A stretch of 60,653 bases of DNA from a virus (IMGVR_UViG_3300014658_000001:1-60653), one strand, 5' to 3'; shown: positions 4,240-51,610, numbered from the stretch's first letter. The notes: generated from the sequence alone by a model not told the origin. Numbers and translations are program-made.

Positions 4240-4455
4240 ATGTTGATACTAACCCGATTGGCCGGTGAGACTATCGTTTTCACCACCGCGGCAGGCGAGG
4301 TGATCACGCTGCATTACCTGCGCAACCGGCACGGAGAGATTCGCCTCGGAATCGACGCGCCGAAATCTGTCCACATCCTGCGCGGTGAGCTGCAATCGAC
4401 GCCGCCCTCGCGCCCGGTCCGTGTCGTTACGAAACCCCTCAAGGTGAACCCGTGA
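4240..4455 (+). CDS. csrA: CsrA/RsmA-family RNA-binding translational regulator
   Basis: MLILTRLAGETIV...IRLGIDAPKSVHILRGEL; AAGGAG RBS. Confidence 0.9.
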   Translation: MLILTRLAGETIVFTTAAGEVITLHYLRNRHGEIRLGIDAPKSVHILRGELQSTPPSRPVRVVTKPLKVNP

Positions 4456-5342
4456 CCGAAGTAGGCCGACGCCCAGACCTGACCGATATTATCGCAATCC
4501 TGGACGCTATTACGGCCATCGAGGCAGACGCGTTTGCTTTAGATCCCAAATCACGCACCTTTCGGGTAGTCTTGACGTTCGATCGTGAGCTCATGACTGC
4601 AGTACCTGATTGGTCGGAAGGTCAGCCAAAGCCTTCATGGTTGATCGAGGGTATCAAGGAGAATCTGAACGCGTGGCGCGTGCAGATGATCCGTGAGGCA
4701 CAGTGGGTTTCAAAAGAGGAACAGATGGGATCTTCTATTGACACCCTCATGGCGCACTACGCAGAGGAGCTGAAGAAAGCGCAGAAGGCCGCTCCACAGA
4801 ATGTCGTCACGCGTACGCAGGCTCGCGTTGCCGCGGATACGATCCTGCGATTTAAAGAGTTGAAAGAGCGCCGCGAAGCCGGTGGCGTTTACTCGCAAAC
4901 CGAAAGCCGCCGTGAGAAAGCTCGCAAGGCATGGGCGGAGGAGGAGTTTGAAGGGCCAAAACGCGAGGAGCAACAGCGCCGGCAGCACCAGCAATACGAT
5001 TACGCGCGACGCTACACCTACGGCTTTGATGGGGTAGACCCAGAGTTACGCCGTAAAGCTGAGGAGGTGTTCCGGGAGTTCAGTGAGGGTTTGTTTGGCG
5101 ATGCGTTTCGGTACGGTAATGGCACTCACCGCGCAAAAGCACCCCCGCCGCCAAAGACTCCGGGCAAGACTCCGTGGTACACGACGCTAGGGGTAGCAGC
5201 GAACGCCACAAAGGATGAAATCAAGAAAGCACATCGCAGACTCGCCGCACGATTTCATCCCGACCGTTACACGGAGCCGGACGGGCACGGGAAAATGACC
5301 GAAATCAACACCGCACGGGACGAAGGATTAGGTGGACTATGA
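4452..5342 (+). CDS. Protein with C-terminal DnaJ (J) domain
   Basis: WYTTLGVAANATKDEIKKAHRRLAARFHPDR...MTEINTARD (HPD motif); alternative start at 4725 possible. Confidence 0.8.
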   Translation: MTEVGRRPDLTDIIAILDAITAIEADAFALDPKSRTFRVVLTFDRELMTAVPDWSEGQPKPSWLIEGIKENLNAWRVQMIREAQWVSKEEQMGSSIDTLMAHYAEELKKAQKAAPQNVVTRTQARVAADTILRFKELKERREAGGVYSQTESRREKARKAWAEEEFEGPKREEQQRRQHQQYDYARRYTYGFDGVDPELRRKAEEVFREFSEGLFGDAFRYGNGTHRAKAPPPPKTPGKTPWYTTLGVAANATKDEIKKAHRRLAARFHPDRYTEPDGHGKMTEINTARDEGLGGL

Positions 5343-5545: not shown

Positions 5546-5763
5546 GTATTGAGTGGATATCCCTGACACAAGAGAAACCCCCCAAAGACGAATACGTGCT
5601 GATTTGGGTTCCTTCTCGCCCATGGTCATCGGATAGCCCTACAGTCTTCGCTTGCGTAGCGGCACGCAGCCACGCAGGGGTATCAGGATGGAAAGAGTTT
5701 GGTCCTGGATACTACATGGACGCTGAAGTGACCCATTGGGCGCAGATCAATCCCCCCACATGA
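5542..5763 (+). CDS. DUF551-like phage protein
   Basis: EWISLTQEKPP..VLIW...VTHWAQINPP. Confidence 0.7.
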   Translation: MSIEWISLTQEKPPKDEYVLIWVPSRPWSSDSPTVFACVAARSHAGVSGWKEFGPGYYMDAEVTHWAQINPPT

Positions 5764-8567
5764 GAAATGCTAATTGCACTCTTTGCCCCCTGCACGAAGG
5801 CGCACGCACGGTCTGTGTCGATGGCTCAGGACCTAAGAACTCCGATATCCTGATTGTGGGGCAGAACCCAGGGCAAGAGGAGGATCGCCGTGGAGAACCG
5901 TTTATAGGGCCTTCCGGGCGCATCCTGAGGCGAGAGCTGGCGAAAGCGGAGCTCGGCACTCTCTTCGGGCCTACGGTGCGCTATACGAACCTCGTACGCT
6001 GCCTTACCCCTCAGAATCGCGAGCCGACTGCAAAGGAAGTCAAGGCGTGCAAGCCGTACCTCGATGCGGAGATCGCACGCATCAACCCCACGTACATCGT
6101 TCCGTTGGGAGCGCTGGCTACCAAAGCCGTTGCCAAAGCGAAGGTCAGCACGGCTCACGGGCAGATGACCGAGCGGGACGGCCGTGTCGTCATGCCGACG
6201 TATCACCCGGCTGCGACCTTCCGCGATCCTTCCAAACTCCAGGTGATCCAACAGGACCTCGCACGGCTGAAGCGCCAGATCGACGGCACGTTAGGCGCTA
6301 CTCAAGACGCATTCGAGTACCGTGTCGTTACGACTCGCACAATCCTCAAAGAGTTCTGGGACGCCTTTGATGCAGCCGACGAGTACGCCTACGACACGGA
6401 AACCAACGGGTTACTACCGCATAAACCCGGCTTTGTGGTTCGCTGCATCGCTATTGCATTGCCCACACGTTCGTGGGTCATACCGCTTGAGATGCCAGGG
6501 GGATTTTATGAAGGGGATCACACTGCCCAACAGGCGTTTTTCCGCGTCCTGGCACGCAAGGCAGCTGGCAAGTGGGCGGCCGTGTTCCACGGTAAATTTG
6601 ACAGCGGCGCGGTGCGGCGGGTGTCTGGCGTCACGCTACCCTACGATTTTGATGCCATGCTGGCCCACTACATCCTGGATGAAAACCAGGACCATGACCT
6701 GAAGTATGTGGCACGTGTTGAACTGGATTGCCCGGAGTATGACTTACCTAAGGCTCTCAAGATCAGCGATACGCCGGAATGGCTGGAGCTTATCAAAGAT
6801 CCGGCGAATCGCGCCAAGTACTGGGAATACAACGCCCGCGATGCATGGAACACCTTGCACCTCGCATGGCTATTCAGCAAACGATTGCGAAATCTTCCCG
6901 CACTGCGCAGGCTTTTTAATGACCTCGTCATGCCCTCCTCGTATGCGCTGGAGTCGATAGAAGCCGAGGGTTTACCTGTCGATCACGCCCAATACAAGGC
7001 GATGGAGACCCGCATCGGTTTCGAGCGCGACGAGGCCGAGCACGTACTCAACGAAAGCGCGGGTAAAACCGTCAATTGGAATTCCCCGCAGCAGATCGCA
7101 CAGGTACTGTTTGAAGACTTAGGGTTGCCGGTAATGGCCAAAACGCCCACGGGCAACCCGTCGACGAGTGAGAAAGCCATCGTTGACTTGAAAGGCGAGC
7201 ATCCGATTATTGAGCAGCTGCTGCACTACCGCGAGTTGGATAAGATCCTGGGAACCTACCTGGAAGGATGGAAGAAAAAAGGATACATCATCGGTAATAA
7301 AGCCTACTTCTCCTACAAGCAAACGGGCACGGTCACCGGGCGCTTCAGCTCCAGACTTCATCAGATACCTACTGACGGCGAGATCCGCTCCATTATCGCA
7401 GCGCCAGAAAACGGGGACTGGGAATTTGTCGCAGCAGATCTGTCGCAGGCTGAGTTGCGCATCGCTGCAGAAACCTCGGGGGATCTGCAAATGATATCTG
7501 CTTACCAAAGCGGGCAGGATGTACACTGGAAAACGTTGATGTTCATGCTGGGCACAGGGGCTACGGATGCATCAGAACTATCGATTCAGACTGCGGAAAT
7601 GTATTGCCTGCGCCACATGGTACCGCCCGACAGGACCGGCTGCGAAGTACTGCAAGCAGTGTGGCAGGCAAATAAAAATCAAGACAACACGGAAAGCTTT
7701 ATTAAAGTATCGTCGAAAGGTATGCCAGAATTTCGGCGTGGGGTCAGGCGGTGCGCAGTGGGGGGAGAGCAACCCCTACTGGAAGGGTGGAATTTCTCCG
7801 GTTCGGCTAACGAGGTGGAAAAAGACGTCTTGCGAGCGCTGCGGGAGTACCAAACACTTAGTCGCGCATCACAAAAACCACGTTCGCAGCGTAAATCACA
7901 AATACAATTGTCAGACTCTTTGTCGCTCCTGTCATGCCTTACACCACAAGTTGCATACGAACTTTCACACGAGTGGAAGGACTGGAGAAACAAAGCAAAG
8001 AGGGTGAACTTCGCGTTTTTATACGGAATGTACGAAAAAACATTCATGGAGCGCGCTCGTGTTGATTATGACTGGTATTGCACCTACTTAGAAGCTTCCC
8101 GCATGAGAAAATCCTTTTTTGAACTGTATTCCGGTCTTGAGCCCTGGCACAACCGGTGCAAAAAGATCGCGCGTATCGACGGGTGCGTGACGAACATGTT
8201 CGGCCGGGTGCGCAGGTTACCCGGGATACAGAGCAGTGACAAACTAGCGCGGATGGAAGCAGAGAGGCAAGCGGTGAATGCCCCTGTGCAGGGAACCATC
8301 GGGGACTGGAAAGCCGCGGCGATGATCGAAATTCACGAGACAATCGATAGCGCTAAGTATAGACTCTGCGGAGAACATCACGACGCGCTCTTAGGGTTGG
8401 TACGCAGAGGGTGTGAGGACGAAGTGCTACCGAAAGTGCGAAAAATAATGGAGCGTCCCAGGCTCCTGAAAACCTTCAAAATCAAAATGGCTGTCCCCAT
8501 GGTCGTCGATATCAACGTCGGGGCCTGGGGTAGAGGCAAGGTATATCATGACCCGCAATACTTATGA
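5760..8567 (+). CDS. polA: Family A DNA polymerase with N-terminal uracil-DNA glycosylase (family 4-like) domain and 3'-5' exonuclease; carries an in-frame insertion before motif B
   Basis: UDG: CTLC, GQNPGQEED..PFIGPSG, YHPAA. Exo: YDTET, KFD, YNARD. Pol: TGRFSS, motif A DLSQAELR, motif B RNKAKRVNFAFLYG, motif C HHDA. Confidence 0.95.
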   Translation: MRNANCTLCPLHEGARTVCVDGSGPKNSDILIVGQNPGQEEDRRGEPFIGPSGRILRRELAKAELGTLFGPTVRYTNLVRCLTPQNREPTAKEVKACKPYLDAEIARINPTYIVPLGALATKAVAKAKVSTAHGQMTERDGRVVMPTYHPAATFRDPSKLQVIQQDLARLKRQIDGTLGATQDAFEYRVVTTRTILKEFWDAFDAADEYAYDTETNGLLPHKPGFVVRCIAIALPTRSWVIPLEMPGGFYEGDHTAQQAFFRVLARKAAGKWAAVFHGKFDSGAVRRVSGVTLPYDFDAMLAHYILDENQDHDLKYVARVELDCPEYDLPKALKISDTPEWLELIKDPANRAKYWEYNARDAWNTLHLAWLFSKRLRNLPALRRLFNDLVMPSSYALESIEAEGLPVDHAQYKAMETRIGFERDEAEHVLNESAGKTVNWNSPQQIAQVLFEDLGLPVMAKTPTGNPSTSEKAIVDLKGEHPIIEQLLHYRELDKILGTYLEGWKKKGYIIGNKAYFSYKQTGTVTGRFSSRLHQIPTDGEIRSIIAAPENGDWEFVAADLSQAELRIAAETSGDLQMISAYQSGQDVHWKTLMFMLGTGATDASELSIQTAEMYCLRHMVPPDRTGCEVLQAVWQANKNQDNTESFIKVSSKGMPEFRRGVRRCAVGGEQPLLEGWNFSGSANEVEKDVLRALREYQTLSRASQKPRSQRKSQIQLSDSLSLLSCLTPQVAYELSHEWKDWRNKAKRVNFAFLYGMYEKTFMERARVDYDWYCTYLEASRMRKSFFELYSGLEPWHNRCKKIARIDGCVTNMFGRVRRLPGIQSSDKLARMEAERQAVNAPVQGTIGDWKAAAMIEIHETIDSAKYRLCGEHHDALLGLVRRGCEDEVLPKVRKIMERPRLLKTFKIKMAVPMVVDINVGAWGRGKVYHDPQYL
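7567..8007 (+). CDS. HNH homing endonuclease overprinted in the +1 frame inside the polymerase gene
   Basis: CIAC..YCKQC zinc finger, GESNPYWKGG motif, CERCGSTKHLVAHHKNHVRSVNHKYNCQTLCRSCHALHH core; AGGGGG upstream of ATG. Confidence 0.88.
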   Translation: MHQNYRFRLRKCIACATWYRPTGPAAKYCKQCGRQIKIKTTRKALLKYRRKVCQNFGVGSGGAQWGESNPYWKGGISPVRLTRWKKTSCERCGSTKHLVAHHKNHVRSVNHKYNCQTLCRSCHALHHKLHTNFHTSGRTGETKQRG

Positions 8568-33906: not shown

Positions 33907-34998
33907 CTACCTCGTATAGTGGCCAATCATCGGGCGCAGCATGACAGGTGACCCGTCTGTTTCGGATTGCCAAGCCTCGTTCCATCGGTTGGTGTCTTCC
34001 TGCATCAACATTTGCTTATCCAGATCACTCATTTGCTTGGCGACTTCTGGAATCATCAGCATGAGTTCCTTCGCAAGCCGCGTCAGGATTGTCAGGAACC
34101 AGCGCTGGGGTACTTCCACCGTCTGCGTCAGTGTTCCTACATCCTGCACATAGCGCTGCACGTACAACACGGTCTGCGCAAAGGTGTATTGCAGCTGGGG
34201 TGCCGGCCACAGGGTCATGACCGGCTGTGGTTGGGTCTTGTCGTACCAGAATTGCAGCGGCCGACCCGTGAAGTACTTGTTAGGAAGATTAGCGTAGTCA
34301 TCCCGGTTGATCTTCGCGATCGGGATCTCCTGAGGCGCTGCTCCAGTTACGAACTCTGTCACGTTCAGCGTCGTACCGCCCGAGGCCTGCAAGCGTACGT
34401 AGAGCACGCCGGCTTCCGGGATACCCTGAATATCCACCCAGAACCACTGACCCGCTACGGCAGCCAACGCAACGTTTGAGTACACCGTCGTGAACGTGAC
34501 CCCATCATTAGAAGTCTGGATCGCAACATTCCAAGTCCCAGTAGCGTTGGGAAGAATACCGAAGATGACCGGCTGACCCACCGCGGGGAATTGCACCTGG
34601 AGGTAACCATTGGTAGAAGTCTGCGTGCAGGCGGTGGCTAGGTTGTTATCGAACGCATTCGCAGCTATGCCGCCCGCAGAGCTGGTGTAAACGGTGCCAG
34701 GAGCAGAGAGCTGCAGTTGTGTAACATTGCGCAGGTTCGCATTAAGAATGTCGACCGTGCCCAAAGGGGCCGGTACGTCCTGCGTAGCGTCATAGAGGGG
34801 CAGGATGACTTTCTGCTGCGCCCACAGTGCAATGCCCTTGCTCGCGATCGTCGACAGCGACAGATAGAGTAGGTCTTGCGCAATCGCAAGGTACTCAGGG
34901 GTGATCTTCTGCGGGGGTACTTGGCAACGACCAAACGACCGGTCAATGAGCTTGCCCGTGTTGAAAGTGGTCGTAGATACTGTGCCGCTCGTCGTCAA
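33907..34998 (-). CDS. Head-tail adaptor-like virion protein with inserted discoidin-like domain
   Basis: TTG start with GGAG RBS; TTSGT..., ANAFDNN insert, INRDDYANLPNK..GRPLQFW..LWPAP. Confidence 0.7.
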   Translation of the reverse strand: MTTSGTVSTTTFNTGKLIDRSFGRCQVPPQKITPEYLAIAQDLLYLSLSTIASKGIALWAQQKVILPLYDATQDVPAPLGTVDILNANLRNVTQLQLSAPGTVYTSSAGGIAANAFDNNLATACTQTSTNGYLQVQFPAVGQPVIFGILPNATGTWNVAIQTSNDGVTFTTVYSNVALAAVAGQWFWVDIQGIPEAGVLYVRLQASGGTTLNVTEFVTGAAPQEIPIAKINRDDYANLPNKYFTGRPLQFWYDKTQPQPVMTLWPAPQLQYTFAQTVLYVQRYVQDVGTLTQTVEVPQRWFLTILTRLAKELMLMIPEVAKQMSDLDKQMLMQEDTNRWNEAWQSETDGSPVMLRPMIGHYTR

Positions 34999-35085
34999 GG
35001 CGCTCTCCGTAAGGGGAAAGCGCGCCTGCACTGAAGTCGCGGCACACTAGCGGGCACAATGTCCGCCGACCTGGAGCCTAGCGGC

Positions 35086-35114
35086 TTGAACTACGCGTTA
35101 CAAGAGCTTACCTT
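35086..35114 (+). promoter_or_regulatory. Sigma70-like promoter driving the tRNA-like RNA
   Basis: TTGAAC-N17-TACCTT; same -10 as the TerS promoter; predicted +1 about 35120-35121. Confidence 0.55.
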
Positions 35115-35120
35115 GATATG

Positions 35121-35213
35121 GTGGCAGGAGGTCGCCGGTTCGAATCAATCCGGCCGGGCGACCTTGCGACAACGCACCCGCCCGTAGCTCAGCAAGGAGA
35201 GCACCTGCCTCTA
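35121..35213 (+). ncRNA. Circularly permuted tRNA-like RNA (3' half precedes 5' half)
   Basis: GCAGG-AGGTC-GCCGG TTCGAATCAAT CCGGC-CGGGCGA, 16-nt linker, CCGCCCG-TA-GCTC AGCAAGGA GAGC-A-CCTGC-CT. Confidence 0.8.
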
Positions 35214-35984
35214 CTTGATGCCGTGCCCGCGAGGCTTGGGCGTACGAACGTGCTTTGCCACCTCTTTCCGGGCTACCTTCTCCATCCCCACAGGGCCGCC
35301 CCTGGCGTGCATGGCGGGCTGAGGACCTGGCATGACCATGGGACGACGCATGGGCATCTGAGGACGCACAGGCATCCCCTGAGGAGCTCTGGCGGCTAAC
35401 TGACCCAGCGCACCAGGAGCGGCTCGAGCTCCACCCGGTGCAGGCATTGTCGCCATGGGGCGCACTGCGGGACCCGCCACCAGACCCCCGGGGGCGTACA
35501 TTGCTCCGCCAGCGTTCTTGTGGACTGCGTGACCGCCCTTGGCGTAGTCGGGACCTTGTGCGGGCACTTTCGTACAATCGTGCACGCTGCCCCCTTCCGC
35601 AAACTTTTCGGCTGCCCTCTCCTCAGCAGAGTACGAACGGCTCACCGAATGACTGCCGCCCTTCGCATGAAAATGCTTATGAACGTGGAAGTGCTTAAGC
35701 TTACCCCCCTTCTTGTAGCCTGAAGTCAGTGAGCCTTTGCCCCCATGCTCAGCGAGCTCCTCAGTAGGGGCTTCCCTGCGCTGGACCGCGGAGTTGCCCT
35801 GCATGCGATTGCCTTCTTTGGGGTAGACCTCAGGATGCCCCGGGTTCTCATCGATCTTGTCCACCGGGCCTCCACGGGCGAGGCGGTTGATCGTGCCCCC
35901 CGTACCGCCCCCACCACCGATAGCGCCGCCACCCCAGTGATGGTGGCCGCTGACCGTGCGGGTTGAGTCTTTAAAGCCTGACAT
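35211..35984 (-). CDS. Low-complexity Gly/His/Met-rich protein with repeated xAxGG motifs
   Basis: LARGGPV, YKKGG, HAKGG, FAEGGSV, YAKGG, YAPGGLV, HARGGPV; TAGGAG RBS. Confidence 0.75.
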   Translation of the reverse strand: MSGFKDSTRTVSGHHHWGGGAIGGGGGTGGTINRLARGGPVDKIDENPGHPEVYPKEGNRMQGNSAVQRREAPTEELAEHGGKGSLTSGYKKGGKLKHFHVHKHFHAKGGSHSVSRSYSAEERAAEKFAEGGSVHDCTKVPAQGPDYAKGGHAVHKNAGGAMYAPGGLVAGPAVRPMATMPAPGGARAAPGALGQLAARAPQGMPVRPQMPMRRPMVMPGPQPAMHARGGPVGMEKVARKEVAKHVRTPKPRGHGIK

Positions 35985-35993
35985 GGGATTCTC

Positions 35994-36284
35994 CTAACGA
36001 ACGCTCTGTTGGGACACCGCCAAGACATCTCCCGACACCATTCCGGTACAGCGTACCCCTCGCGCACCCATGGGTGCTTGCGCCGCAGCTGCGGTGCTAT
36101 TGGCGGTGACGAGGTTTATCCACGCAGGCGTGATGGCTGCATTGAACACGTCATCCAAGGTGTACTGTACTTGCGCCGTGTTGCTCGCACTCTCAATAAC
36201 TATTGACGCCGGTGAAGTGCAATACACATCCAGCGGCACTGTCGCAGACGTGCCGGTTACTCCCGTTACTCTGATCGGACGCAT
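35994..36284 (-). CDS. Putative virion structural protein
   Basis: VPLDVY..VQYTLDDVF; head module context. Confidence 0.65.
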   Translation of the reverse strand: MRPIRVTGVTGTSATVPLDVYCTSPASIVIESASNTAQVQYTLDDVFNAAITPAWINLVTANSTAAAAQAPMGARGVRCTGMVSGDVLAVSQQSVR

Positions 36285-36294
36285 GTGGGTTACC

Positions 36295-37086
36295 TCAGAA
36301 CGGCGGTGTCTGGGTAAAGTTCACCCGGTCTTTGAACCCGTACCAATAATCCACCTGCAATGCGCGCGCAGCGGCTGTTGAGGGGCTCACCCCAGACAGG
36401 AACGCCAACAGAGTCGCACCCGGGAAGTTCGTCGGCGCCGGAATCGAACCGCGAGCATTAGCCGTAAGGCCAGAGGTCAACCCGTAAGGCGGAGGTGCGC
36501 ACTCCCAAATGATCGCACCGTTGGGTGTGTGAGGCGCGTACAAGCCGCCGTCCCAGTACCACCCCAGGGTTGCAAAGTTACCCCCGACGAGACTTACTCC
36601 GCAGGGCAGCGTTGTAACGACGCCCGCCACCGCGACGTTAATGCTCAACACACCCGCGTTCGTCGTAGAGAACCACACTCCATCGGTAAGCTGGCCCCCC
36701 GTAAACGGGGTTGTAGTAACGTTCGTCATGCCCGCCAGCACCAACCCCAGGACGTTATCCACAGAAATAAGTTGCCGGAACCACGTCCGCGCGCCTAACT
36801 GAATCTTGAAGTGACCCTGTTTCTGCAACGAGGCTGCGGTAGATGCTACCGCGTTGAGACTGATTACCCCACCATCCATGTTCGGCTGGGTAACCGTCGC
36901 AGCACCTCCGCTGGAGAGCGTAAATCCACCCGCAGTACCCACCGCAGTTGGGCCAAAGTAATCATCAAAGTCCTGGTAATAATTGTGATTCTTGGTCCAG
37001 TCATCTACGGGTTGGTCTGAAAACAACTCCGTGTCGCGAGTGTTATTCCACCCGAACTGCGTGCGTGAAACCTGTACGTCAAACAT
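36295..37086 (-). CDS. Putative virion structural protein (beta-rich)
   Basis: YYQDFDDY..QVDYWY; AGGTG RBS. Confidence 0.7.
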   Translation of the reverse strand: MFDVQVSRTQFGWNNTRDTELFSDQPVDDWTKNHNYYQDFDDYFGPTAVGTAGGFTLSSGGAATVTQPNMDGGVISLNAVASTAASLQKQGHFKIQLGARTWFRQLISVDNVLGLVLAGMTNVTTTPFTGGQLTDGVWFSTTNAGVLSINVAVAGVVTTLPCGVSLVGGNFATLGWYWDGGLYAPHTPNGAIIWECAPPPYGLTSGLTANARGSIPAPTNFPGATLLAFLSGVSPSTAAARALQVDYWYGFKDRVNFTQTPPF

Positions 37087-42578: not shown

Positions 42579-42947
42579 CTAGATGCGATTACGCGTGCCG
42601 CCCGTGCTCTTTCCGCCGTGGCCACTGTGGGTAGCCGCACCCTCATCCGGCTCCTCAGTGTAGGTGTGCTCGGTGTGCTCTGGAGGGTTATGCCCGTGAT
42701 GCACCAGGGAATGGATGCCGTGGCCCTTGTGTCCACTGTGCCCGCTGCCTGGGTGCGTGTGGTGCTCGTGCGGCTCCTTGTGGCCGTGGGTGCCGTGCCC
42801 ATGGTGCTGCTCATGTCCATGCTTCATCGACGTATGACCTCCGCGGGAGTGTGTGTGCACGCTGCCGCCCTTGGCGTATCCATCGACGTGGCCGGTCTGC
42901 GCCAATTGCTGGTGCTTACTGATCGGTCCACTGTACTTTTCCGCCAT
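42579..42947 (-). CDS. Histidine-rich protein (27 His in 122 aa)
   Basis: GAGG RBS before ATG 42947; YAKGGSV motif. Confidence 0.7.
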   Translation of the reverse strand: MAEKYSGPISKHQQLAQTGHVDGYAKGGSVHTHSRGGHTSMKHGHEQHHGHGTHGHKEPHEHHTHPGSGHSGHKGHGIHSLVHHGHNPPEHTEHTYTEEPDEGAATHSGHGGKSTGGTRNRI

Positions 42948-50905: not shown

Positions 50906-51610
50906 TTAAGGATGCGCGACATGGAGCTTCTCCTTTAGCAGATAACCCGCACGAGCCGCAGCCCGTAATTTTTCCTTAGTAGCCTCCGAAGTTATTTTTC
51001 CCCTCAATGCCCGACTGATACGGTCACGGTGTTCCTGAGTAAATTTGCGCCCCACATTTGCTGCAACCATTCGTGCTCTAGCCTCCGGGGAAATAGTACG
51101 ACTTTGCTGCGCCAATCTCATCCGAGCGCGCTGCGCTTCAGTAGCCCGGGTACCTTTTCGCGCTATAGACATGGCCGCTTTACACTCCTCGGATAACCTG
51201 CGGCCTTTCAAAGCTGCGGTTATCTTTGCTTGGTGCTCAGGCGACTTGACCTTACCCCGAGCAGCGCGGGACATTTTTTGGCGACTCTCCGGGAGAAATT
51301 TGAAGCCCAACATACTCCCGGCCACCGGACATAAATTATACCCCCTCCCCCGACAAGACGCGGATAGTTCCTGTATCCAATAATTCTCCCTCGCAACCAA
51401 CTGCGTCGGGTCACTTAAGTATTCCAACACCTCAAACACAAAAGAATCAGCCCCGTATTTATCCCAAGCCCGCTGTAGCAACCGATTCGCATGAGTGTGC
51501 TTAGCTAAACCCCAACGATGGTCTTTCCATCGCTTAGCTATCCGAACTGCGCTGCCCACGTAAACCTTGCCCGTAGCGCAGTGACGGATTGCGTAAATCC
51601 CGCTACTCAA
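50906..51610 (-). CDS. GIY-YIG homing endonuclease with NUMOD3-type repeats
   Basis: SGIYAI..VYVGSA..RW..H..F.FEVLE..RENYWI..GYN; repeated GxKxSxExxxKxS motifs. Confidence 0.92.
   Translation of the reverse strand: MSSGIYAIRHCATGKVYVGSAVRIAKRWKDHRWGLAKHTHANRLLQRAWDKYGADSFVFEVLEYLSDPTQLVARENYWIQELSASCRGRGYNLCPVAGSMLGFKFLPESRQKMSRAARGKVKSPEHQAKITAALKGRRLSEECKAAMSIARKGTRATEAQRARMRLAQQSRTISPEARARMVAANVGRKFTQEHRDRISRALRGKITSEATKEKLRAAARAGYLLKEKLHVAHP

Follow-up and report, generated by a model that had tools for sequence, protein, structure and literature searches.

A circularly permuted tRNA-Arg-like element between two late genes of a phage, possibly a young tRNA mimic derived from a tRNA dimer

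What could a bacterial virus do with a tRNA whose 3' half is encoded before its 5' half, and on the strand opposite to its late genes? Such an element was located at 35123-35210 (+) of a virus record of 60,653 bp, and the whole of this stretch, a complete genome with direct terminal repeats, was the window analysed here. The phage encoded a DNA polymerase of family A with a fused UDG domain, a primase-helicase, a PD-(D/E)XK nuclease and AAA_24, DUF669 and SNF2 proteins; a GIY-YIG homing endonuclease, a portal, a large terminase and a major head protein were encoded as well. The polymerase gene lay at 5736-8567 (+), with the uracil-DNA-glycosylase-superfamily domain at the N-terminus, the homing endonuclease gene at 50906-51610 (-) (phrog_314, E 9e-39), and a 296-aa protein with a DnaJ domain at its C-terminus was encoded at 4452-5342 (+). 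The nearest cultured relatives were Caulobacter phages RW, GB2A, RLK and KcrB (38% identity in the tail-adaptor homologue), and Megablast of 34000-36500 against GenBank phages gave no match. A weak JUMPstart match at 42858-42911 (-), with 21.5 bits against a cut-off of 35 (E 3.4), was probably a chance hit.

The element lay in a 179-nt gap between two late genes of the minus strand. The upstream gene (35211..35984, -) encoded a Gly-rich and basic protein of 257 aa belonging to no family, and its 3' end was homologous in the related loci L004 and L006. The downstream gene (33907..35031, -) encoded a 374-aa tail-adaptor homologue, which is annotated as 'tail adaptor' in MW202545. All neighbouring genes were on the minus strand, with the + strand of the element antisense to the entire late cluster. 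The TAG stop codon of the upstream gene (35211-13) abutted the element, and the CTA read there on the + strand was the complement of this stop, as the earlier note on this DNA had pointed out.

The element was composed of the 3' half of a tRNA, a hairpin linker of 16 nt and the 5' half, in this order. It began with GGCAGG (35123..35128, +; detected as part of an inverted repeat), in which GCAGG (35124-28) corresponded to tRNA positions 39-43, on the 3' side of the anticodon stem, and the extra G35123 paired with C35209. By sequence and tRNA alignment, the variable loop AGGTC (35129..35133, +) took positions 44-48, and its C35133 could form a Levitt pair with G35192 (G15:C48). The T-arm (35134..35154, +), recognized from the sequence and from the alignments to the YrlA model and to tRNA, consisted of GCCGG (35134-38), an 11-nt loop TTCGAATCAAT (35139-49) and CCGGC (35150-54). 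This loop was the canonical UUCGAAU with 4 extra bases, AATC being duplicated, and in the YrlA-model alignment its insertion amounted to 5 bases, where the consensus has 1. The acceptor 3' strand CGGGCG, then ACC (35155..35163, +; CGGGCGA at 35155-61), was placed by alignment to tRNA-Arg(UCU), which ends in CGGGCGCACCA. The linker closing the acceptor stem (35164..35177, +, or 16 nt when counted as 35162-77) formed a 4-bp hairpin, TGCG (35165-68)/ACAA/CGCA (35173-76), in both minimum-free-energy folds. The acceptor 5' strand CCGCCCG (35178-84), with U8 and A9 behind it (35178..35186, +; sequence and tRNA alignment), made a stem of 6 bp with 35155-60, in which C1 was unpaired or faced A. The D-arm GCTC/AGCAAGGA/GAGC (35187-35202) with A26 (35187..35203, +) was defined by the same evidence as the T-arm; A14, G15 and GG were present in its loop, with no base between GG and the last loop base. 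Finally CCTGC (35204-08, positions 27-31) with C32 and U33 (35204..35210, +) ended the element, and the tRNA likeness stopped here. Read from the sequence, bases 35119-22 (UGGU) of the left spacer could lengthen the closing stem through U35119-A35213, G35120.U35212 and G35121-C35211, with U35122.U35210 as a mismatch. The coordinates given in the earlier note all proved correct against the sequence, and so did its permuted architecture, with both stems complementary and the break at the anticodon loop.

Alphaproteobacterial genomes were fetched by similarity, and of their tRNAs the tRNA-Arg(UCU) of L147 matched the two halves best; the ancestry of the element was thereby placed in tRNA-Arg. Positions 2-33 were identical outside the D loop, and positions 39-71 differed at position 44, at one compensatory T-stem pair and by the 4 added T-loop bases. 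Every internal stem pair was intact, and the differences from this nearest tRNA all lay in loops or at pair 1-72. When the halves were swapped (5' before 3'), a check proposed in the earlier note, ARAGORN called a tRNA from 35178 in 16 of 36 junction variants by default and in 26 of 36 with -ps95, against 0 calls in the native half order; over the whole 60,653-bp genome 0 tRNA and 0 tmRNA were called. A contiguous cloverleaf with a 7-nt anticodon loop was absent (ARAGORN 0; RF00005 without a match at E up to 5). The tRNA similarity ended at U33 and resumed at G39, and from 35211 onward the neighbour's stop codon and coding sequence were found. The anticodon changed with the join, the 36 joins giving 10 different amino-acid or special labels besides undetermined calls, so none could be assigned, as the earlier note had already held.

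Two candidates from among known RNAs were rejected. An initiator tRNA, brought to mind by C1-A72, is recognized by three consecutive G-C pairs in the anticodon stem and by the identity of pair 11-24; the anticodon stem of the element had no such three pairs and pair 11-24 was C-G. A two-piece (permuted) tmRNA was ruled out since no tmRNA was called by ARAGORN and since the element has a D-arm and anticodon-stem strands, which tmRNA does not have.

After CGGGCG the element reads ACC against CACCA in the tRNA. On this alignment ACC may be read as the remnant of an encoded CCA end (discriminator and CC) with C72 lost, and because of this reading the unit resembles the place where two identical tRNA-Arg genes with encoded CCA would meet head to tail, at a distance of about 13 nt. 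That no CCA was encoded, as claimed before, holds for a full CCA, and is to be qualified by this apparent remnant. Like a tandem tRNA junction, the element has a T-arm and acceptor 3' strand, a short spacer, then an acceptor 5' strand and D-arm, with the CCA remnant and similar covariance-model scores. It is unlike such a junction in that it has no outer halves and ends where the anticodon stem does; neither the 17 nt upstream nor the coding sequence downstream was tRNA-like, and thus the remaining halves of two tRNA genes were not beside it.

A donor was looked for in several ways. In the acceptor-junction scan, with each species represented by one genome, a single chance match turned up, upstream of a lone tRNA-Arg(CCG), and no donor; the pattern used in this genome-wide scan demanded A72, so a canonical donor with G1-C72 could be missed. 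In 401 alphaproteobacterial genomes, blastn of the element returned half-length tRNA matches only, and a pattern search for short-spaced tRNA-Arg pairs returned 13 chance matches in 12 genomes, none of them tandem. No second copy was found in viral contigs by exact-pattern scans, either with the acceptor junction (0) or with the 3' half (0). The capture from tandem identical tRNAs, one of three interpretations in the earlier note, is therefore kept as an origin on account of the CCA remnant, while the near-exact donor junction that it implied was not found in these searches. At the end of a viral contig (L160:17-299, +), tRNA-Arg(ACG) was present as three identical genes in tandem, which encode CCA and are separated by 27 and 25 nt. 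A CTTGAT repeat at 35112 and 35214 was considered as a target-site duplication; its occurrence was not significant, with P 0.06 against shuffles and 0.135 against genome windows, so the idea was dropped and no insertion mechanism is supported.

The only Rfam family or tRNA-related match in the whole window was YrlA (RF02553), over the full model length, with 26 bits (E 5.8e-5 for this genome) against a gathering cut-off of 69 bits. As described by Chen et al. 2014 (PMC4201824), YrlA RNAs contain a T stem-loop, an acceptor-like stem-loop, a D stem-loop and often a V stem-loop, carry the motif GNCGAAN0-1G close to the 5' end as a putative Ro60 contact, lie at most 4 kb from Ro60 on the same strand, and have been reported from 254 bacteria and 22 bacteriophages. 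The same source proposes a tRNA origin for YrlA, gives dimeric tRNAs as false positives of the YrlA model, and reports that RNase P cuts M. smegmatis YrlA, with CCA added afterwards. Membership is further judged by Ro60/Rsr binding and by modification through TruB and DusA. The earlier note had known of no phage example and implied novelty. The 'circular permutation' layout is instead a known design, phages included, because its topology is that of YrlA RNAs in their tRNA-like module, and these have been reported from 22 bacteriophages (PMC4201824). Like YrlA, the element runs from an outer-stem strand through a variable region, T-arm, loop-closed acceptor-like stem, U8-A9 and D-arm to the other outer-stem strand, and G15:C48 can be formed.

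The element shares the topology of YrlA and lacks the defining features of the family. T and D stem-loops with the tRNA-invariant bases and an acceptor-like stem-loop between them were present, with a T loop 4 nt too long and an irregular D loop. A search of the complete 60,653-bp genome, the 4 kb around the element included, gave no PF05731 (Ro60/TROVE) match, and the control genomes behaved as expected. There was no GNCGAAN0-1G in 35040-35135, and the V stem-loop with the outer-stem signature (GTTACTTC ... CTACGT) was absent, a plain 5-nt variable loop standing in its place. Unlike YrlA, then, the element has the variable loop and anticodon-stem strands of a plain tRNA, a T loop of 11 nt and a longer acceptor closure (16 nt); unlike the processed M. 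smegmatis YrlA (PMC4201824), it has 6 good acceptor pairs instead of 7, with pair 1-72 defective.

A T-loop...D-arm pattern search of viral contigs gave 126 matches, among which 85 lay between two ARAGORN tRNAs, 18 touched one and 23 touched none. RF02553 was run on 39 viral records and its 69-bit cut-off was reached in none of them (0/39); the best scores were 18.3-52.7 bits in stand-alone records (one without a match) and 18.6-39.9 bits in tandem-junction records. A TROVE gene was found within about 2 kb of the element in 10 of 22 stand-alone records (L019, L034, L036, L067, L085, L090, L103, L118, L123 and L127). These ten scored 30.5-52.7 bits and not one reached the cut-off, which indicates that the RF02553 threshold is too strict and misses true phage YrlAs. 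Most of the ten had a V hairpin, a GTTACTTC-like word and, behind the D-arm, a CTACGT-like one; TTACTTC or TACTTC occurred in 8, and a canonical T loop in all 10. The GNCGAAN0-1G regex found nothing in the 60 nt upstream of these elements, so its absence says little about membership in phages.

A covariance model built from the ten, R1, gave 42.3 bits for the element studied here, and ordinary tandem junctions reached up to 60.3 bits. Both models therefore score the element in the range of tandem tRNA junctions, and neither separates it from a tRNA dimer. Higher R1 scores (94.4, 77.1, 76 and 71.4 bits) were obtained for stand-alone permuted tRNA-like elements in phage records without a detected Ro60 gene (L054, L057 and L016), L064 also scored 71.4 bits, and with L071 the range was 53-94 bits. 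The statement on TROVE covers L054 (a 5-kb fragment), L057, L016, L071 and L063; L071 and L063 lie in complete genomes without TROVE (G414 and G412). The element resembles L054, L057, L016, L064 and L071 in standing alone in a phage record without a detected Ro60 gene, and differs from them in that they have a V hairpin and outer stem, while it resembles a bare tRNA-dimer unit. Another tRNA-like element, closed by a loop and with AGGTC as its plain variable loop, was seen at the head of a phage tRNA array (L126:1440-1560, +), about 300 nt ahead of the first of 8 tRNA genes in a 90-kb record without TROVE. In the literature searched, no paper on Ro60-less phage tRNA mimics was found; the list of 22 phages in PMC4201824 may bear on this point.

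Twelve related loci encoding tail-adaptor relatives (53-84% protein identity), 6 from viral contigs and 6 from metagenomes, were compared, which represent about 7 distinct lineages after duplicates. The earlier note had looked to conservation in relatives; the element was in 0 of the 12 loci, nothing aligned to 35113-35197, and this counts against a functional reading. The sole overlap among these loci was a 29-nt match in L157 (E 0.066), at an unrelated place, and Rfam and ARAGORN gave no relevant YrlA or tRNA call in L002-L007. In five relatives' records the only tRNA gene was that of the related phage G444 (L159:1500-1582, -), an odd tRNA of 82-83 nt called Ser(GCU) by ARAGORN, with 48 bits for RF00005 and unrelated to the element.

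What the relatives did share was a 35-nt block (35072..35106, -), 80-85% identical in L002-L006 and L153-L156, all without the element; it occurs once in the genome. This block is probably the minus-strand promoter or regulatory region of the tail-adaptor gene and lies outside the tRNA-like element. A hairpin with compensatory changes at about 35049-35068, and an 11-nt inverted repeat (34978-88/35039-49) that brackets the tail-adaptor start codon, were likewise common to relatives, and 34978-35106 as a whole is probably a late promoter with a translational or processing structure of the minus strand. Between the block and the upstream stop, each lineage carried different and unrelated DNA of about 0-100 nt, almost nothing in L002 and L005 and 93 nt in L006. 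In the same slot a long near-perfect hairpin was seen at L003:3825-3945 (+) (-55.1 kcal/mol, z -3.78, 0 of 200 shuffles as stable), and a 7-bp hairpin spanning the stop in L004.

The element had been credited with its own promoter, TTGAAC-N17-TACCTT at 35086-35114. These hexamers are present and match 4/6 and 3/6 positions, below the scan threshold of at least 4 matches in each hexamer, and neither a sigma-70-like promoter nor an intrinsic terminator was called on either strand. TTGAAC (35086-91) lies in the block kept by relatives without the element, TACCTT (35109-14) in the left spacer (35107..35122, +), where no promoter was called. The promoter is thus unsupported, because its -35 is in the conserved block, its -10 in the variable part and nothing was called by the scan. 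The folding energy of the + strand was unremarkable against shuffles (z -0.56 and -1.33). A contig of 512 nt from the RNA library of another run (X2) covered 34845-35356 with 0 differences, therefore the arrangement is no assembly artefact; the contig has no strand, and DNA carry-over is possible. Among the other libraries, also of strandless contigs, one RNA contig of X4 ended at 35112 and the next began at 35341, X3 covered only 35347-35497, and X5 had no contig over the region.

Circularly permuted tRNA genes, with the 3' half upstream of the 5' half, are known from the red alga Cyanidioschyzon merolae and an archaeon. They encode a complete tRNA including the anticodon loop, rely on an archaeal/eukaryal splicing endonuclease and the bulge-helix-bulge motif, and are matured by this endonuclease and a ligase; bacteria are not known to have such a system. 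No phage permuted tRNA was found in the literature searched, judged by title and abstract start. The element is like these genes in that its 3' half is encoded first, and unlike them in having no encoded anticodon loop and in its bacterial-virus setting. It is hardly credible that its transcript would be circularised or ligated and then re-cut into a decoding tRNA, for example one with anticodon CUA, and among the three interpretations in the earlier note this was the least likely. The swapped halves do form a cloverleaf and one particular join would read CUA, but the anticodon depends wholly on the join, the bases after U33 are the neighbour's stop and C-terminus, conserved in L004 and L006, and the acceptor end is closed by a hairpin with a defective pair 1-72. 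Besides, no RNA ligase or tRNA-processing enzyme was seen among 10 proteins searched in Pfam and 12 in PHROGs, which are part of the proteome. The element cannot decode. It is very improbable, too, that it is a true Y RNA, which would bind host Ro60/Rsr and thereby redirect RNA decay in the host, in the manner of YrlA with Rsr and PNPase. YrlA was the only Rfam family matched, and at full length, and the TROVE-adjacent phage YrlAs are also under the cut-off, therefore a low score by itself does not rule membership out. Against this, the complete genome holds no TROVE gene, Caulobacter vibrioides, the host of the nearest cultured phages and one of the controls, gave no TROVE match, the Ro60-contact motif, the GTTACTTC-V hairpin and the CTACGT signature are missing, and the R1 score stands below those of the YrlA-class orphans (64-94 bits). 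Somewhat less improbable, and still quite unlikely, is a role of the minus strand, in which the complement would be a structured spacer behind the upstream stop in the late mRNA, serving 3'-end protection, processing or attenuation in front of the conserved promoter block, so that the tRNA likeness would be irrelevant. All neighbours are on that strand, the element begins right at the stop codon, other structures occupy the slot in L003 and L004, and the fold is as stable as that of the + strand (-47.7 vs -44.5 kcal/mol). This fold is no better than shuffles, however (z -1.17), no T run or terminator was called, and L002 and L005 are nearly spacerless and the spacer of L006 has no significant fold, therefore structure is not required in the slot.

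A serious possibility, with clearly less than an even chance, is that the element is an inert relic. Identical tRNA-Arg genes with encoded CCA, arrayed head to tail in a host or another phage, would have lost roughly one repeat unit to this spacer by illegitimate recombination, and the captured unit would now be decaying without a functional RNA. Its absence from all relatives and a spacer that tolerates unrelated DNA of about 0-100 nt agree with this, as does the lack of a called promoter or terminator; the T-loop duplication, pair 1-72 and the D loop look like decay. The ACC remnant points to a genomic tandem origin, arrays of this kind exist (the tRNA-Arg(ACG) genes of L160), and the covariance-model scores equal those of tRNA dimers, which PMC4201824 names as false positives of the YrlA model. 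On the other hand, no donor was found by the all-species junction scan or in the 401 alphaproteobacterial genomes, the flanking CTTGAT repeat is not beyond chance, and random capture leaves unexplained the ends at the anticodon stem, the extension of this stem and the intact internal pairs.

The reading that is tentatively preferred, with a chance approaching even but short of it, is that of a tRNA mimic which does not decode, arose from a tRNA dimer and was acquired recently; a mimic or decoy had been proposed in the earlier note as well. The unit would be one circularly permuted gene of tRNA-Arg(UCU) type, from a 3' half with a putative CCA remnant through a hairpin linker to a 5' half ending at U33, apparently a lineage-specific insertion in the hypervariable spacer between two late genes. 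Transcription of the + strand would yield an RNA of about 100 nt, predicted to fold into a tRNA body with T-arm, D-arm and an acceptor stem of 6 bp; this body would be closed at its acceptor end and open at the site of the anticodon loop, on a closing stem of about 10 bp. Selection as an RNA would most likely have shaped such a unit, as a young mimic from a head-to-tail tRNA dimer; the RNA, if made, may be bound by host proteins which recognize the elbow and the acceptor helix of tRNA, with presumed benefit to the phage.

This mimic is preferred because of the anatomy and the match to tRNA-Arg(UCU), because the full-length YrlA-model alignment gives T, closed acceptor and D in the YrlA order, and because the swap test yields tRNA calls. 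It is favoured also by the stop of the tRNA-derived part at the anticodon-stem ends on both sides, by the stem lengthened through G35123-C35209 and three of four further pairs that are not inherited from the tRNA (A38 in L147), by the linker making its own hairpin, and by the internal stem pairs, none of which is broken, with a compensatory pair in the T stem. The neat ends may in part be owed to the selection of this stretch among many windows by the author of the earlier note. There is a precedent for the class in the 23 of 126 matches that stand alone and the 10 of 22 records linked to TROVE, and YrlA-class elements are held by other records without TROVE, including the complete genomes G412 and G414. 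The cutting of M. smegmatis YrlA by RNase P and the addition of CCA (PMC4201824) argue in the same direction, and so, as a weak point, does the unchanged sequence in the RNA-library contig. Several facts speak against the mimic: the element is a singleton, found in 0 of 12 related loci and without a second copy in the viral contigs; no promoter or terminator was called and the + strand is antisense to the late cluster; the extra T-loop bases, the lost or mismatched pair 1-72 and the D loop without a base between GG and its last base are lesions unfit for an elbow mimic; the RF02553 (26 bits) and R1 scores fall within the range of tandem junctions; and the folding energy is no better than that of shuffles. 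It is unlikely that a tRNA-Arg dimer was trimmed to one permuted unit and is expressed as an uncleavable decoy, which would sequester a host factor that recognizes the body of tRNAs, such as an anti-phage anticodon nuclease or an RNA-repair sensor, so that the spacer, with another structured RNA in each relative, would be a slot for small counter-defence RNAs.

As a by-product, the Rfam YrlA cut-off was found to miss phage YrlAs beside Ro60 genes. If the element is a relic, it is a warning that YrlA covariance models cannot separate mimics from tRNA dimers. If it is expressed, it would be a tRNA mimic working without Ro60 and without the YrlA-specific parts, and would add to the sparse evidence for phage tRNA look-alikes besides real tRNAs; its closeness to the parent tRNA-Arg would let the route from dimer to Y-RNA-like mimic be read from the sequence. 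Were the trimmed dimer indeed a newborn mimic, the path by which tRNAs give rise to YrlA-type Y RNAs could be seen in it.
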